Assembly (NCBI GenBank): GCA_963793035.1
Contig: CAWBYI010000004.1
Location: 4,175-68,174 of the forward strand
Direction: 5' to 3'
DNA length: 64,000 nucleotides
Origin: an uncultured Actinomycetes bacterium
GTDB taxonomy: Bacteria; Actinomycetota; Thermoleophilia; Gaiellales; Gaiellaceae
Shown: one piece after another, positions 13,699 to 58,710 of the stretch
How the letters are laid out: the number at the start of each line of letters is the position of its first letter
How positions within the stretch are numbered: the stretch's first letter is position 1
Translations under genes and position numbers: made by a program
The notes under the pieces: generated by a model
Seen by the model: the letters and a program-made list of their open reading frames with translations, nothing else
The model's database searches: none
What the model was told of the DNA's origin: nothing

Positions 13699-14718
13699 CT
13701 AGGACAGCCCGGCTTCGGCGAGCGGGCGTCGGCCCCACGCGAAGCGCGTCTCGTACCAGCCGGTCATCGGCGTGAGCGTCGTACCGCGGTCGGACGAGTG
13801 GGCCATCCAGCCGTTCCCGACGTAGATCCCCATGTGCCCGACCTCGGCCGGCTTCGACGCCTTGCCGCGTGAGCCGAAGAAGACGAGATCGCCGGGCTGG
13901 AGGCTCTCCCACGGGACGCGCGCCGCTCGCGGAACCTCGCCGCTCATGTCGAACGTCGTCCGTCCCCTGAGCACCGCGCCGAGCGCCTCGGACCCGCCGA
14001 AGGACTCGAGCTTGTAGACGCGCCAGACGAACCCGCTGCAGTCGAAGCCGCCTGGCTGCTTGCGCCCGAGCAGCACCTGCGGGCGTTCCGACGTGCCCGC
14101 CCACACGTACGGCGAGCCGACGAAGCGGAGCGCGCGGGCGAGGATCGCCTGCTGCCAGGCGTCGAGCTGCGGGAAGGTGAACACCTCGAGCTGGGCGCGC
14201 GCCGCCTCGAGCTCGAACTCGGAGATCGTCAGCACGCGGGCGATCGAGTACGCCGCCTCCGCGCGCGTCGCAGGCTGCCCGAGCTGGAGCTCGAGCTGCT
14301 CCTGCGTCTTCACGTGGTTGACGCGGAGGCCGAGCAGGCGGGCGACGGTCTCCGTCCCGAGCCACTGCTTCGGGGTGAGCCCGGCGGCGAGTGCGGCGAG
14401 CCGCAGGTTGCGCGCGTAGTCCCGGAACCCGATCGCCGTGACGAGCTGCGCGTCGAGCTCGCGGACCGAGACCGGCCGGTCGAGGTCCGTGACGGAGACG
14501 ACCGGAACGCCGAGCGTCGCGAGCACGATCGAGAGCTCGCCGGCCGTGAGCGGGTCGTCCGGCCGGAACTCGGCGGGGCTCGGCGCCATCAGGCCCGCGT
14601 CGACGACTGCCTGGATCTGCGGGGAGGCCCAGGAACGCGGCGCTGCGCCGGCGCTCGAGACGCCGAGGGCGACGAAGGAGAAGAGCAGGCACGAGAGAAC
14701 GAGGACCCGGCGCATCAC
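13699..14718 (-). CDS. Secreted NlpC/P60 (C40) cell-wall peptidase
   Basis: Signal peptide 'MMRRVLVLSCLLFSFVALGVSSAGA'. The C-terminal part has 'GGFDCSGFVWRVY', 'GDLVFF' and 'HMGIYVGNGWMAHS' catalytic Cys/His motifs. Confidence 0.9.
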   Translation of the reverse strand: MMRRVLVLSCLLFSFVALGVSSAGAAPRSWASPQIQAVVDAGLMAPSPAEFRPDDPLTAGELSIVLATLGVPVVSVTDLDRPVSVRELDAQLVTAIGFRDYARNLRLAALAAGLTPKQWLGTETVARLLGLRVNHVKTQEQLELQLGQPATRAEAAYSIARVLTISEFELEAARAQLEVFTFPQLDAWQQAILARALRFVGSPYVWAGTSERPQVLLGRKQPGGFDCSGFVWRVYKLESFGGSEALGAVLRGRTTFDMSGEVPRAARVPWESLQPGDLVFFGSRGKASKPAEVGHMGIYVGNGWMAHSSDRGTTLTPMTGWYETRFAWGRRPLAEAGLS

Positions 14719-14797
14719 GCCGAGTATCGGACGATTCCTGCTGCGCCAACAGATCTCTTAAGAGAACCCGAACAGGGGCCACGCCTACAGTTGCAGC

Positions 14798-15295
14798 GTG
14801 CGTGCGGTCCTCGTTCTCGCCTTCGTCGTCGCGCTGGCTGCAGCTGGATGCGGCGGCGAGAAGGAAGCGACCGCGCCGCCTCCGGACACGAGCGCGCAAC
14901 AGGCGCCCGAGGTCGAGGGCGTCACGATCGACGGCAAGCGGCTCTCACTCGCGGACTTCCGAGGACAGCCGGTGTTCGTGAACGTCTGGGCGGCCTGGTG
15001 ACTGACCTGCCAGAGCGAGGCGGTCGCCTACGCAGAGTTTCAGGAGGATCACCCCGAGTTCGCGTACCTCGGGATCGCGGTCGCGAGCACGCCTGAGGAG
15101 GCGAGAGGCTTCGTCGAGCGCTATGGCTGGACGTGGCCGTCGATCGTCGACCGAGAGCGCGAGCGAGCGCGGAGCCTCGGCGCCGAGTACCAGCCGCACG
15201 TGATCGTGCTCGACGAGGACGGTCGCATCGTCGGCTCCTTCGAAGGCGGCGGCGAGGACGCGGACTGGGAAGCGCTCGCCGACCGCGTCTCCTGA
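14798..15295 (+). CDS. TlpA/ResA-like thioredoxin-fold lipoprotein with an in-frame TGA at the first Cys of CxxC (candidate selenoprotein, UxxC)
   Basis: Lipobox 'ALAAAGC'. '...GQPVFVNVWAAW-TGA-LTCQSEAVAY...' is followed by 97 more open codons with thioredoxin-fold sequence ('YGWTWPSIVD', 'EYQPHVIVLDEDGRIVGSF') up to the TGA at 15293-15295. The in-frame TGA is at 14999-15001. Confidence 0.6.
15015..15033 (+). promoter_or_regulatory. Candidate bacterial SECIS hairpin
   Basis: GCGAGGC-[GGUC]-GCCU(A)CGC, 7 bp with one bulged A. The apical GGUC loop begins 20 nt after the UGA, which is similar to the E. coli fdhF SECIS geometry. Confidence 0.45.
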
Positions 15296-15322
15296 TCAGC
15301 GAGGTCGCTAGGCTCCGCGCGG

Positions 15323-15685
15323 ATGAGCAGCGCCGAGACGAGGAAGCTCGCGAGCGACTGCCTCTCGGCGTCGTGGCTCGCCGAACGGTGGGCGGTCGAT
15401 CCCGGGAAGATCGAGGCCATGCGGCGCGGAGGCGAGCTCATCGCCGTGCACGCGGAGGGCTCGACCGAGTGGCTGTACCCGACGTGGCAGCTCGACGGTC
15501 GCGAGCCGCGGCGCGTGGTCGCACGCATCGTCGCCGCGGCGCGCGAGGCCAGGCTTGACGAGGCGCGCCTCTACGAGGTGCTCACGGGGCGGCTCGGCCT
15601 GCGCGGCGACAGGCGCCTCGTCGATCTCGTGCTCGAAGGTCGCGACGACGAGGTCGTCGAGGCCGTGCGCTCGGCGAATCCCTAG
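15323..15685 (+). CDS. Hypothetical protein, C-terminus weakly resembles the Xre/MbcA/ParS-type antitoxin (DUF2384) domain
   Basis: 120-aa ORF. '...ARLYEVLTGRLGLRGDRRLVDLVLEGRDDEVVEAV' resembles the DUF2384 pattern. No toxin partner is adjacent. Confidence 0.45.
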   Translation: MSSAETRKLASDCLSASWLAERWAVDPGKIEAMRRGGELIAVHAEGSTEWLYPTWQLDGREPRRVVARIVAAAREARLDEARLYEVLTGRLGLRGDRRLVDLVLEGRDDEVVEAVRSANP

Positions 15686-54357: not shown

Positions 54358-54375
54358 GGCGTATCGTGCATCGCC

Positions 54376-55650
54376 GTGAAGGACGACGCGAGGACGGGTG
54401 AGCTCTCGCGCCGAGACCTCGTCGCGCGCGCCGGGGTCGCCGCCGCCGCGGTCGCGCTCGGACAGCCACTCGTCGCCGAGGCAGCGCCCGACCTGCGCCG
54501 CTGGAGCGGCGTGCGCGCGCAGTTCGCGCTCGATCCGCGGCGCATCCACCTGGCGTCCTTCCTGCTCGCCGCCCATCCACGCCCCGTGCGAGACGCGATC
54601 GAGCGTCATCGTCGGGGACTCGATCGAGACGCGGTCTCGTACCTCCATGGGAACGAGGGCCGGCTCACCGCCGCCGCGCGCTCCGCGGCAGGTCGGTACC
54701 TCGGCGTGCCTGCGAACGAGGTCGCGCTCACGGACTCGACGACGATGGGCCTCGGCCTGCTCTACGCACGGCTCGCGCTGAAGCCGGACGAGGAGGTCGT
54801 GACGACCGAGCACGACTTCTACGCGACGCACGAGGCGCTGCGCCTGTCCGGCGCGACGGTGCGGCGCGTCCGTCTGTACGACGACCCGCGCCGTGCCTCG
54901 GTCGACGAGATCGTGACGCGACTGCGCCGCGGGATCTCGGGTCGGACTCGCGTCGTGGCGTTGACCTGGGTGCACTCGAGCACCGGCGTGAAGCTTCCGA
55001 TCCGGGCGATCGCGGACGCGCTGCCCGATCGCGTGCTCCTCTGCGTCGACGGCGTGCACGGGTTCGGCAGCCAGGCGGCGTCCGCGCGCGAGCTGCGCTG
55101 CGATGCGTTCGCGTCCGGGTGTCACAAATGGCTCTACGGCCCCCGCGGTACGGGCGTCCTGTGGGCGAACGAGCGCGTGCGCGAGCTCGTCCGGCCGACG
55201 ATCCCGTCCTTCGACGACGGTGCGAGCTACGGCGCCTGGCTGTCGGGGACGACCCCGTCCGGGATCCCCGACGGCGCACGCCTGACGCCCGGCGGCTTCC
55301 ACTCCTTCGAGCACCGCTGGGCGCTCGCCGAGGCGTTCCGCTTCCACGACGCAATCGGGCGCAGGCGGGTCGAGGCGCGGGTGCGCGCGCTCGCCGCCAG
55401 GCTGCAGGCGGGGCTCTCGGAGATCCGCGGCGTCCGCCTCCGAACGCCGTCGTCGGGCGCGGTGTCGGCGGGCCTCGTCTGCTTCGAGGTCGCAGGGCTC
55501 GACCCCGACGCAGTCGTGCAGCGGCTGGCCGCGCGCCGGATCGTCGCGAGCGTCACGCCCTACGCCGAGCGGTACGTGCGGCTCGGCCCGGGCATCGTCA
55601 ACACGCCGGCCGAGGTGGACGCCGCCGTTCGCGCCGTCGCCGCGCTCTGA
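54376..55650 (+). CDS. Tat-signal aminotransferase class V (isopenicillin-N-epimerase-like PLP enzyme)
   Basis: 'SRRDLVARAGVAAAAVALG' is a twin-arginine-like signal. 'ALTWVHSSTGVKLP' and 'ASGCHKWLYGPRGTG' (PLP Lys) follow. Confidence 0.8.
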   Translation: MKDDARTGELSRRDLVARAGVAAAAVALGQPLVAEAAPDLRRWSGVRAQFALDPRRIHLASFLLAAHPRPVRDAIERHRRGLDRDAVSYLHGNEGRLTAAARSAAGRYLGVPANEVALTDSTTMGLGLLYARLALKPDEEVVTTEHDFYATHEALRLSGATVRRVRLYDDPRRASVDEIVTRLRRGISGRTRVVALTWVHSSTGVKLPIRAIADALPDRVLLCVDGVHGFGSQAASARELRCDAFASGCHKWLYGPRGTGVLWANERVRELVRPTIPSFDDGASYGAWLSGTTPSGIPDGARLTPGGFHSFEHRWALAEAFRFHDAIGRRRVEARVRALAARLQAGLSEIRGVRLRTPSSGAVSAGLVCFEVAGLDPDAVVQRLAARRIVASVTPYAERYVRLGPGIVNTPAEVDAAVRAVAAL

Positions 55651-55663
55651 GCCGCCTCAGCTG

Positions 55664-56152
55664 TCAGCCGCTCGCGGGCGGGGGCACCAGGCGGGAAACG
55701 AAGCAGCAGTCCCCGCTGACGCCGTCCACCAGGAAGATCGCGTCGACGCGGGCGCCCTCCGGCCAGTCGCCGAGCCGCGCGAGGGCCGCGCCCGTCTGTC
55801 CGCGCCACGCGACGATCCAGGCAGGGACGTCCTTCTCCACTGGCACCTCGATCTCCCCGGACGGCGGCACGGCGAGCGGCCCCCGCGAGAACCGGCCGCC
55901 GACGAGCGCGGGCATGACGACCGGGTCCTCCTCGGGAGCGTCGTCGAGGAAGAGCGCCCGCCGGACCGCGCGAAGTGCGAACTCGCCTGTGACCGGGAGC
56001 TCCGAGGCAGCCGCCGGGCGGACCGTGAGCCCGCCCAGGTCGGAGCGGATCCAGGCCGGCACGGACGCGGCGGCTGAATCGCGATCCCGTGCAGCGAGCA
56101 CGACGGCGACGACGAGAAGCGCGACGGAGCACGCGATCGCCGCGGCTCGCAC
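55664..56152 (-). CDS. Membrane-anchored hypothetical protein (162 aa)
   Basis: This is the C-terminal portion of the 971-aa track ORF. GTG 56152 is followed by the TM helix 'AAAIACSVALLVVAVVLAA' and a coding-like domain. It lies 8 nt downstream of the valS stop. Confidence 0.5.
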   Translation of the reverse strand: MRAAAIACSVALLVVAVVLAARDRDSAAASVPAWIRSDLGGLTVRPAAASELPVTGEFALRAVRRALFLDDAPEEDPVVMPALVGGRFSRGPLAVPPSGEIEVPVEKDVPAWIVAWRGQTGAALARLGDWPEGARVDAIFLVDGVSGDCCFVSRLVPPPASG

Positions 56153-56160
56153 GCGCCGCG

Positions 56161-58579
56161 CTACCCCTCGAGAGCGGCGAGCTCGCGGCGGTAGCGCTCG
56201 AGCTTCTCCCGCTCCGCAGCGACGACGTGGTCCGGCGCGTTCTGCACGAAGCGCTCGTTCGCGAGCATTTCCTCCGCGCGGGCGACCTCGCCGCGCAGGC
56301 GCGCGATCTCGGCATCGCGGTTGCCGTCGACCCGCTGGCGCTCGGGCCGCACGACCGCGGCGAAGATGCGGCGCTCGTCCTCCGACCCCAGCTCGACCTG
56401 GACGCCGCTCCTCCGGAAAATCTGGGCCGCCTCCTGCACGCGCTCGAGTGCGCCCGCATCGTCCGCGAACCGTGAGTCGGGCTCCGGCCACGGCGAGACG
56501 ATGAGGCGCGCGCTGCGGTCCGGCAGCTGCGTCCAGATCTCCTCGGTCACGTGCGGCATCACCGGGTGCAGGAGCGCCAGCAGCCGCTCGAGCGCGGCGA
56601 GCGCGGTTGCCGAGGCCTCGTCGTCCTCGGCATAGAGCCGCGGCTTGATCGCCTCCGCGTACCAGTCGCAGAAGTCGTCGTATGTGAGGTGGTAAAGCGC
56701 GTCGACGACCGCGGCGAAGTCGTAACCCGGCGAGGCCTTCCTCGACGTCGGCTCGCACGCGCTCGATACGCGCGAGGATCCAGCGCTCCTCGAGATCGCG
56801 CGGGCTCGCCGCCGGCGACAGGCCCTTTGCGTTCTGGATGATCAGCCGCGAGACGTTCCAGAGCTTGTTCGCGAGCCGGCGGCCCTCCTCGATCGCCTTG
56901 ACCGCGAGCCGCGCGTCCTGCTGCGAGGACATCTTCATCAGCCCGTAGCGGGTCGCGTCGGTGCCGTGCTCCCCGATGAGGTCGAGCGGGTCGACTCCGG
57001 TGCCGAGCGACTTCGACATCCTCCGCCCGTCGTGTGCCAGCACCGTCGAATGGATGATCACGTCGCGGAAGGGAATGTCCCCGACGAGCTCGAGGCCCGA
57101 GAAGATCATCCGGTTCTCCCAGAGACGAATGATCTCGCGTGCCGTGATGTTGAAGTCGCCGGGGTAGAAGCGCCGCAGATCGGGCGTGTCGTCCGGCCAC
57201 CCGAGCGTCGCGAACGGCCAGAGTGCAGACGAGAACCACGTGTCCAGGACGTCCGGGTCGCGCTCGAGCTCGGTCGAGCCGCATTCCGCGCACGTCTCGG
57301 GCTCGGACTCCGCGACCGTGATGTGGCCGTTCGGGCAGTACCAGACGGGCAACTGGTGCCCCCACCAGATCTGGCGCGAGATGTTCCAGTCGGGCGCGTT
57401 CTCGAGCGAGTCGATCGCGAACCGGTGCTGCGACTCGGGGTGATACCGGACGCGGCCCGAGCGGAGGGCCTCGAGCGCCGGCTCCTTGAGCTCTTCCATT
57501 CGGCACCACCACTGAAGGGAGATCAGCGGCTCGATACGGCTCGCACAGCGCTCACACACCGCGACGGTGTGCCTGTACGGCTCACGCTTCTCGAGCAGTC
57601 CACGCTCCTCGCACCACGCGAGGACGCGAGCGCCGGCCTCCTCCTGCGTCATGCCCGCGACCTCGGGAACGACGTCGTTCATGCGCCCGTCGCCGCCGAT
57701 CACCATCGGCTCGGGGAGGCCGTGGCCACGTCCGATCTCGAAGTCCACCGGATCGTGGCCCGGGGTGACCTTGAGCGCACCCGTGCCGAACTCCGGCTCC
57801 ACGCGCTCGTCGGCGATGATCGGGACCCGTCGCTCGACGAAGGGCACGATCGCCTCCTTGCCGACGAGGTCGCGGTAGCGCTGGTCGTCCGGGTGCACGG
57901 CAACCGCGACGTCCGCGAGGATCGTCGCCGGCCGCACGGTCGCAATCGTGACGTGCCCGCTGCCGTCGGCGAGCGGGTACCGGATGAAGAAGAGCTCGTC
58001 GTCGGTTTCGACGTGGTCGAGCTCGAGATCGGAGAGCGCGCTCTCGTGGAACGGGCACCAGTTCACGATGCGGTTGTCCCTGTAGAGATAGCCCTTGTTC
58101 CAGAGATGGACGAAGAACCGGAGCACCGCCCGCACGTAGTCGTCGTCCATCGTGAACCGCTCGCGGCGATAGTCCATCGACGCGCCCATGCGCCGGAACT
58201 GGCTCATGATCGTGCCGCCGTAGAGACGCAGCCACTCCCAGACGCGCTCCTCGAACGCCGCCCGGCCGAGCTCGTGACGCGACAGCCCGTTCCGTTCGAG
58301 CTCCTTCTCCACGACGCTCTGCGCCGAGATGCCCGCGTGGTCGTATCCGGGCTGGAAGAGCACGTTGTACCCCTGCATTCGACGCCAGCGGACGAGCGCG
58401 TCCGCCAGCGCGAGCTGGAGCGCGTGCCCCATGTGCAGCTCGCCAGTGACGTTCGGGGGCGGGAAGGCAACGACGAAGGTGTCGCGCGGATCGTCCGCGT
58501 CCGCCGCGTACAGGCCTTCGTCCTCCCACGTCTTCTGCCAGCGCTCCTCGACGCCTTCCGGGCGGTACAGGGTCTCCAT
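56161..58579 (-). pseudogene. valS: Valine--tRNA ligase, one frameshift at the C3/G3 run near 56726-56730
   Basis: 'PPPNVTGELHMGH' (HIGH) and 'RMSKSLGT' (KMSKS) are present. After '...RADVEEGLA' the sequence continues in the 56161-56562 frame as 'GYDFAAVVDALYHLTYDDFCDWYAEAIKPRLY...HPVMPHVTEEIW...' through the C-terminal coiled coil. Confidence 0.9.
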
Positions 58580-58710
58580 CGGCGAGGAGTCTACGGCGGC
58601 TCTACGGGGCGTTCCGGTGTCGCCTAGCGCGCGTCCGTGAGCAGCCCGGATACCGGGAACCCAGGTACGAAAGACGAACGGCCCTTGGCGTCGCGGAACA
58701 CGTGCTCAGG

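Follow-up and report, generated by a model that had tools for sequence, protein, structure and literature searches.

A gene for an exported TlpA/ResA-like lipoprotein in the Gaiellaceae very probably encodes a selenoprotein. It lies in a stretch of 64,000 nucleotides from an uncultured actinomycete of this family (Thermoleophilia; Gaiellales; GenBank assembly GCA_963793035.1, contig CAWBYI010000004.1, positions 4,175 to 68,174; hereafter called the window, meaning this whole stretch), and it is interrupted by an in-frame UGA that we read as a SelB-dependent selenocysteine (Sec) codon with its selenocysteine insertion sequence (SECIS), giving the predicted product a U-x-x-C redox centre. Reading the codon as recoded rests on the TGA, the downstream frame and a short RNA hairpin that are all kept in the orthologues, on the pairing of Sec with Cys at the same alignment column, and on the hairpin missing from the Cys-type relatives. 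These data show recoding and an RNA element that is under selection and goes with the UGA; from them we infer the inserted residue, its dependence on SelB and tRNA-Sec, the substrate, and CcdA as electron donor.

The recoded gene and its orthologues

The open reading frame (ORF) starts with a GTG at position 14798 of the forward strand and meets its first TGA at 14999–15001. Past this codon the same frame stays open for 97 codons (15002–15292) until a TGA at 15293–15295, as an earlier note on this DNA had stated and as translation bears out, and the translation around the internal stop reads FVNVWAAW-*-L-T-C-QSE. With C put in place of the stop, the 165-aa product matches the Pfam families Redoxin (3.4e-18) and AhpC-TSA (1.5e-17), and its sequence matches in the PDB are ResA (6.3e-14), CycY/CcmG, TlpA and mycobacterial DsbF. 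In the structure alignments with ResA and CycY, the TGA column coincides with the first Cys of W-C-x-x-C, which confirms the earlier placement of the codon at the nucleophilic Cys. The AlphaFold model of the read-through product of an orthologue (P0001) forms one complete ResA-like domain (pLDDT >95 over residues 50–178) whose best Foldseek match is ResA (1st9; TM 0.90, rmsd 1.8 Å), with DsbE/F and CcmG also among the top matches. In this model the Sec column is residue 81, located at the N-terminus of a helix, directly before residues 82–97 which form it.

The protein was also predicted in the earlier note to be a lipoprotein. Its signal peptide ends in AAGC, a hydrophobic segment followed by an AAG-C lipobox as judged by sequence pattern, and a pattern search found a hydrophobic segment with a subsequent lipobox-like [AG][GAS]-C-G-[GS] in 111 of 159 distinct orthologue N-termini, in agreement with that prediction. 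The clade as a whole carries the signature W-[SA]-[SA]-W-U-x-x-C-[QN]-[SG]-E-A-V-A-Y-A. Members of a U-G-V-C subgroup (L001:3595-4386; L030 around 10136) lack the short lipoprotein linker and carry an RTX/HemolysinCabind repeat region (~120 residues) in its place, N-terminal to the TlpA domain.

Orthologues were gathered through protein homology or with peptide patterns omitting the critical column, so that the codon at this column did not influence their selection. A scan of one genome per species with such patterns yielded 487 relatives, and the best 80 of these, which were analysed, all belong to Gaiellaceae, Gaiellales, Thermoleophilia or unclassified actinobacterial metagenome-assembled genomes (MAGs). 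Isolate names with 'MFD' are frequent among the relatives; these we take to be long-read MAGs. The set comprises the window and 86 orthologous loci, one of which (L007) has ~89% DNA identity to the window over 19 kb, while protein identity within the set goes down to ~45%. The gene order, with a divergent NlpC/P60 gene upstream followed by the selenoprotein gene, a 120-aa gene, a DUF4097 gene and a HicB-like gene, is retained in at least 57 of the 80 genome loci, and the relatives are thus orthologues. All 87 loci have TGA at the column, and Cys stands there in the Cys-type relatives described below. The real terminator of the orthologues varies (TGA 69, TAG 63, TAA 15; n=147), whereas the internal codon never does. 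In every orthologue the reading frame continues past the TGA and is conserved; ~30 columns there do not vary, among them the resolving Cys and those of WxWPSI and YQP. Immediately 3' of the UGA stands A (109), C (40) or G (12), but in no case U.

The hairpin downstream of the UGA

The hairpin at 15015–15033 begins 13 nt after the UGA and consists of 4 + 3 bp with a bulged A (A15030) and the loop GGUC (15022–15025), which lies 20 nt after the UGA; in short form it reads GCGAGGC-GGUC-GCCUACGC. The 19-mer alone folds with -9.1 kcal/mol, and the fold bears out the 7-bp stem, bulge and loop distance described in the earlier note. Published constraints on bacterial SECIS elements are a loop of 3–9 nt, an upper stem of 4–16 bp, a G in the first two loop positions, a distance of 16–37 nt from the UGA and a minimum free energy ≤ -7.5 kcal/mol (PMC13188914). 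The hairpin satisfies every one of them with 4 nt, 4 + 3 bp, GG, 20 nt and -9.1 kcal/mol, respectively. A check against this published model thus agrees with the SECIS suggested in the earlier note, and one against Rfam yielded nothing (see below).

The hairpin's 19 nt are nearly invariant in 83 distinct genome-derived sequences, and the flanks vary. In the codon alignment, the hairpin codons AGC GAG GCG GTC GCC TAC have top-codon fractions of 0.99–1.0, as compared to 0.45–0.95 for 31 other conserved columns with four- or six-fold degeneracy. The four degenerate columns within the hairpin rank above all 31 outside it, an arrangement that by our own rank arithmetic has a chance of 1 in 52,360. 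The constraint ends at the 3' edge of the hairpin, as just 77% of the sequences use GCA for the Ala that follows. Since EAVAY was part of one of the two genome-scan patterns, the selection might have been biased toward the hairpin region. A search of metagenome contigs that avoided this bias used solely the DNA pattern NVW[SA][SA]W plus TGA; about 80 of its 120 matches were family members, and the hairpin was present in every one long enough to assess. RNAalifold predicted the hairpin as the sole consensus structure of 30 diverse members. The earlier note had named relatives with TGA but lacking a conserved hairpin and frame as evidence that would speak against a selenoprotein; in the relatives found here, both are conserved.

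Among 165 family instances tallied for variants of the 19-mer, 146 are identical. The loop is GGGU instead of GGUC in seven (L125, L148, L155, L190, L191, L193, L202), AGUU in three (L084, L131, L177) and AGGU in one (L103), and all these variants keep a G within the first two loop positions as well as a GU dinucleotide. The bulged A is replaced by U in five instances. One stem has a compensatory exchange of G-C for A-U on both sides (L079), and one contains an A.C mismatch (L039). The natural loop variants alter the encoded residue (Val to Gly) and leave the stem untouched; they represent a ready-made mutational series for SelB recognition.

The Cys-type relatives provide a natural control. 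A search with the C-terminal 97 residues retrieved mostly fragments of 80–96 aa, which are the signature of truncated gene calls, and two close full-length relatives of the Cys type, P0038 (47% identity; WCGPCNDEAAEYAEF) and P0043 (44% identity; WCPKCRSVAAEYAEF). Cys also occupies the column in P0008–P0010. The genes of P0038 and P0043 have TGC at the Sec column, and instead of the hairpin their corresponding 19 nt adopt other pairings, of -2.8 and -4.6 kcal/mol. Hence, UGA and hairpin occur together or not at all. With the TGA kept in 87 of 87 loci, frame and hairpin retained and TGC without the hairpin in the Cys-type genes, the selenoprotein proposed in the earlier note is supported.

According to the mechanism we propose, the elongation factor SelB, recruited by the hairpin, would bring Sec-tRNA(Sec) to the UGA at 14999–15001 to decode it, in an arrangement as in E. 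coli fdhF. The exported and lipidated protein could then use its selenolate/thiol pair to reduce or exchange disulfides at the outer face of the membrane, and a membrane protein of the CcdA/DsbD type would probably re-reduce it. A DsbD_TM (CcdA-type) gene adjoins the Cys-type relatives in L210–L213 (e.g., L210:4199-4942 and L213:988-1710). CcdA homologues also lie near the Sec-type gene at several loci of a U-P-[IV]-C subclade, about 150 nt upstream in L078 (9139-9852) and L081 (9152-9859), and further ones were found in L083 (several kb off), L105, L116, L172, L201 and L204. No CcdA homologue was found anywhere in the 64-kb window, which was searched over its full length, or in the window's subclade, and no resB/resC family occurred among the Pfam-scanned ORFs of the window. 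In most of the order, the Sec-type gene seems to have lost its link with the electron-donor gene.

Selenocysteine machinery and rival explanations

Several results weigh against a selenoprotein and have to be set beside the evidence above. ARAGORN detected no tRNA-Sec in the window and all related loci (~2 Mb), a result that is uninformative on what lies elsewhere in the genomes, among them several chromosomes of 3 Mb. Likewise, tblastn with E. coli and Tsukamurella queries gave no true match to selA, selB or selD in the same DNA, the rest of the genomes not being covered. On its own, the folding of the window sequence is not persuasive: a 65-nt fold has z = -1.5, which is not beyond chance in DNA so rich in G+C (70% in the window), and a 60-nt fold begun at the UGA favours another structure than the hairpin. 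The significance of the hairpin consequently derives from the comparative data only and not from the fold of a single sequence. Covariation is weak, with one compensatory pair and 11 of 500 column shuffles reaching the observed score, because the stem hardly varies. The bulged base is an A on the 3' side, unlike the 5' U of fdhF. An Rfam scan of 14900–15150 with E values up to 10 matched no family, SECIS families included; given the diversity of SECIS elements in bacteria, this is no argument against function. Finally, no literature linking Gaiella, Gaiellales or Thermoleophilia with selenoproteins was found in the library searched.

The main rival is a site-specific recoding of the UGA to a residue other than Sec, either to Cys by a tRNA-Sec-like tRNA(Cys) and SelB, or by near-cognate read-through with tRNA-Cys or tRNA-Trp that the hairpin stimulates. 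There are descriptions of tRNA-Sec-like tRNA(Cys) inserting Cys at UGA in a SelB-dependent manner, the comparative data prove recoding and a conserved RNA element but do not identify the inserted residue, and the Sec machinery was not found in the DNA searched. Nevertheless, we regard this explanation as quite improbable: the hairpin fits the SelB-type SECIS model fully and has the GGUC loop in common with fdhF, and the codon occupies a position where Sec/Cys exchange is the rule. If the residue were simply Cys, it is hard to see why UGA is kept in 87 of 87 loci when one change to UGC or UGU would give Cys, and insertion of Trp would destroy the redox motif. Alternatively, the gene might be split, with a 67-residue lipoprotein fragment ending at the UGA and a separate C-terminal polypeptide starting just downstream. 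Public gene calls look like this (e.g., P0023 with P0007), the N-terminal fragments ending in ...VNVWASW and the 96-aa ones starting with VCQSE. The internal GTG used by the gene callers, however, exists only in the U-G-V-C subgroup (L001, L030), whereas most members have AGC ACC or CTG ACC there, and neither a ribosome-binding site nor a start codon is conserved. According to the structure model, such a split would also cut the CxxC between strand and helix of a compact ResA-like domain, and it leaves both the synonymous-site constraint in the hairpin and the exclusive use of TGA unexplained; it is exceedingly improbable.

The comparative data refute a pseudogene with a nonsense mutation or a long-read base-calling error, and we give next to no credence to either. 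The closest relatives are long-read MAGs and the frame seems to be disturbed elsewhere in the window (in a valyl-tRNA synthetase-like gene, ~56161–56841), but the same TGA is present in 86 independent assemblies from varied projects and platforms, the sequence downstream is under purifying selection, and synteny is conserved. A genome-wide reassignment of UGA (code 4 or 25), to which the products P0001–P0005 deposited with W at the column might point, is likewise refuted: the window gene itself ends with UGA, as do 69 of 147 orthologues, and other in-frame UGAs with coding-like flanks in the ~1.6 Mb searched (see below) resemble gene ends or antisense frames and have no comparable hairpin. A Sec codon remains our reading of the UGA.

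Further Sec codons were sought in ~1.6 Mb (the window and L001–L086) as in-frame UGAs with a coding signal on both sides and a hairpin with GU in its loop, and no selenoprotein gene beyond this family was found there. Near-copies of the 19-mer with an upstream UGA were not detected outside the family in ~2 Mb. When the SelA of a Tsukamurella plasmid was used as query against the protein collection, the best 120 matches were from Tsukamurella, Mycobacterium and related genera (Mycobacteriales-type) and are silent on Gaiellales. The TlpA-like protein could be the core, perhaps even the only, client of the Sec machinery in Gaiellales, although we think this unlikely. If it were, a dominant order of soil actinobacteria would keep selA, selB, selC and selD together with a selenium requirement for a cell-envelope redox enzyme, and the near-invariant 19-nt SECIS would reflect co-evolution with a single-target SelB. 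This would depart from the published pattern of FdhA or SelD being present in every selenoproteome examined (PMC1794560).

A second, unrelated TlpA-like family with an in-frame UGA was encountered in organisms of lower G+C content (57–59%; L189:770-832, reverse strand, and L198:1484-1546, forward strand). Its motif is LLNVWASW-U-G-[GA]-C-REELPR, and a perfect 6-bp hairpin, GCGAGG-AGUUG-CCUCGC, begins 13 nt from the first base of the UGA. This family probably is another UxxC selenoprotein lineage.

Known systems, annotation and neighbouring features

The closest functional parallel is E. coli fdhF, which also has an in-frame UGA (codon 140) and a short intragenic hairpin with a GGUC tetraloop and a single bulged base in the stem. 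The earlier note had put the fdhF loop about 18 nt after the UGA; measured, it starts 18 nt after it, as compared to 20 nt in the window gene. The bulge is a 5' U after 3 bp in fdhF and a 3' A after 4 bp here, and the stem sequences are unrelated. The host protein here is an exported thioredoxin-fold lipoprotein rather than a cytoplasmic molybdoenzyme, and its synthesis would probably depend on SelB.

Thioredoxin-fold UxxC proteins have been predicted before, as the families 'thiol-disulfide isomerase-like' (cd02966, TlpA-like), 'Prx-like thiol:disulfide oxidoreductase' and 'thiol:disulfide interchange protein' (PMC13188914, Table 1; PMC1794560), the first of which is credited to the Sargasso Sea study (PMC13188914). 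The window clade resembles them in fold class, in having U-x-x-C at the CxxC position and in the type of evidence, namely Sec/Cys pairs and bacterial SECIS elements. The families in PMC1794560 are, however, tabulated mainly for Deltaproteobacteria, whereas this clade belongs to Gaiellales-type Actinomycetota and is set apart from the known families, by their descriptions, through its lipoprotein signal and its own signature. For Rubrobacter xylanophilus, listed under Actinobacteria, five selenoproteins were reported (PMC1794560). New here is an unannotated, order-wide Gaiellales member of the known UxxC TlpA-like selenoprotein class. It would add a selenoprotein, and hence Sec decoding, to Gaiellales-type Thermoleophilia, but the general picture of bacterial selenoproteomes is unchanged and specialists will not be surprised, as thioredoxin-fold UxxC proteins are already common.

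With the Cys-type reductases, including ResA of B. subtilis and B. anthracis, TlpA and CycY/CcmG of Bradyrhizobium, DsbE/DsbF of M. tuberculosis and the Etrx lipoproteins of S. pneumoniae, the protein shares the fold (TM 0.80–0.90, normalised to the target), the W-C-x-x-C position, the conserved proline loop and a membrane or lipid anchor. It differs from them by Sec replacing the nucleophilic Cys and by identities of just 20–30%. An exported UxxC enzyme with natural Cys-type sisters would lend itself to a Sec-versus-Cys comparison, and the sharply defined SECIS could be used as a probe of SelB specificity and as an annotation rule.

No NCBIfam model reaches its cut-off with this protein, and the clade is covered by none of the curated NCBI families. 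The scores for the ResA and TlpA equivalogs (NF002854 and NF047696) remain far below their cut-offs, with 57.6 versus 170 and 45.9 versus 230 bits, respectively. The best-scoring selenoprotein model, NF041054, reaches 52.8 bits against a cut-off of 300. This curated family of 'ResA-like WAxxUGC motif-containing proteins' likewise has Sec in the redox motif of a ResA-like domain, but its model spans 354 positions versus 165 residues and has U-G-C versus U-x-x-C, and the window protein is not a member. In the protein collection, close relatives appear as three kinds of entries: products of ~165 aa ending in ...VNVWASW, products of 96 aa beginning with VCQSEAVAYAEF, and full-length products with Trp at the column. 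Fragments of both types come from a single gene, whose two halves share a contig. The Trp-containing P0001–P0005 are JGI gene calls. For P0002–P0005 the DNA, located on short contigs (L002:1310-1828, L003:389-922, L004, L005, L006), has TGA at this codon and does not give the deposited product with code 11; the Trp therefore is an artefact of gene calling with code 4, a model which the gene caller apparently chose because it joins both halves. The gene is thus systematically mis-annotated, as N-terminal fragments, C-terminal fragments or full-length products with a spurious Trp, and the expectation of the earlier note that automated annotation would truncate it came true in that public calls split it or read Trp. 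The code-4 Trp artefact could be mined systematically for selenoprotein genes.

The features of the gene are compiled in the table. Its conserved proline P133 we take to be the cis-Pro, an assignment that draws on established knowledge of the thioredoxin fold.

Table. Features of the recoded gene, in window coordinates.
Feature	Position	Strand	Basis
Complete recoded coding sequence, TlpA/ResA-like thioredoxin-fold lipoprotein with predicted U-L-T-C redox motif	14798..15295	+	165 codons + stop; translation, Pfam, PDB matches, P0001 model
Predicted signal peptide with lipobox, MRAVLVLAFVVALAAAG-C18; Cys18 codon 14849-14851	14798..14851	+	Read from sequence
UGA very probably read as selenocysteine, codon 68, nucleophilic first Cys place of CxxC	14999..15001	+	Orthologue TGA, Cys alignment
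TGC, resolving Cys C71 of U-x-x-C	15008..15010	+	Invariant column, both orthologue alignments
Putative SECIS-type hairpin, GCGAGGC-GGUC-GCCU(A)CGC	15015..15033	+	Fold, conservation, consensus structure
Conserved proline P133 codon, aligned with cis-Pro loop of thioredoxin-fold proteins	15194..15196	+	Invariant in orthologues; ResA alignment 'yqPh' vs 'plPt'
Genuine terminator TGA	15293..15295	+	Frame end

A consensus scan of 14650–15400 found no promoter or terminator, and in the whole window Rfam at gathering thresholds recognised tRNA-Ala only. TACAGT (14786–14791) occurs 6 nt 5' of the GTG of the selenoprotein gene, and TAGGCT (15309–15314) is located 8 nt 5' of the ATG of the downstream 120-aa gene; that they may be -10 boxes of leaderless transcripts is speculation. 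This 120-aa gene, directly downstream at 15323–15685 on the forward strand, is kept in 62 of the 80 genome loci and has no Pfam or NCBIfam match.

Farther away, the window encodes a class-V aminotransferase (54358–55650, forward strand; Pfam Aminotran_5, 4e-32). The family to which it belongs includes cysteine desulfurases and selenocysteine lyases, and no evidence of a link between this gene and selenium metabolism was found in the window. A long valyl-tRNA synthetase-like ORF (55664–58705, reverse strand) stays open throughout, while over ~650 nt (about 56161–56841) its codon-position G+C signature is that of a different frame, before it reverts. This suggests a pair of compensating indels. 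In a long-read MAG, assembly errors are a likelier source of these than genuine damage to an essential gene; the finding fits the earlier note, which called every other disruption in the window an indel.

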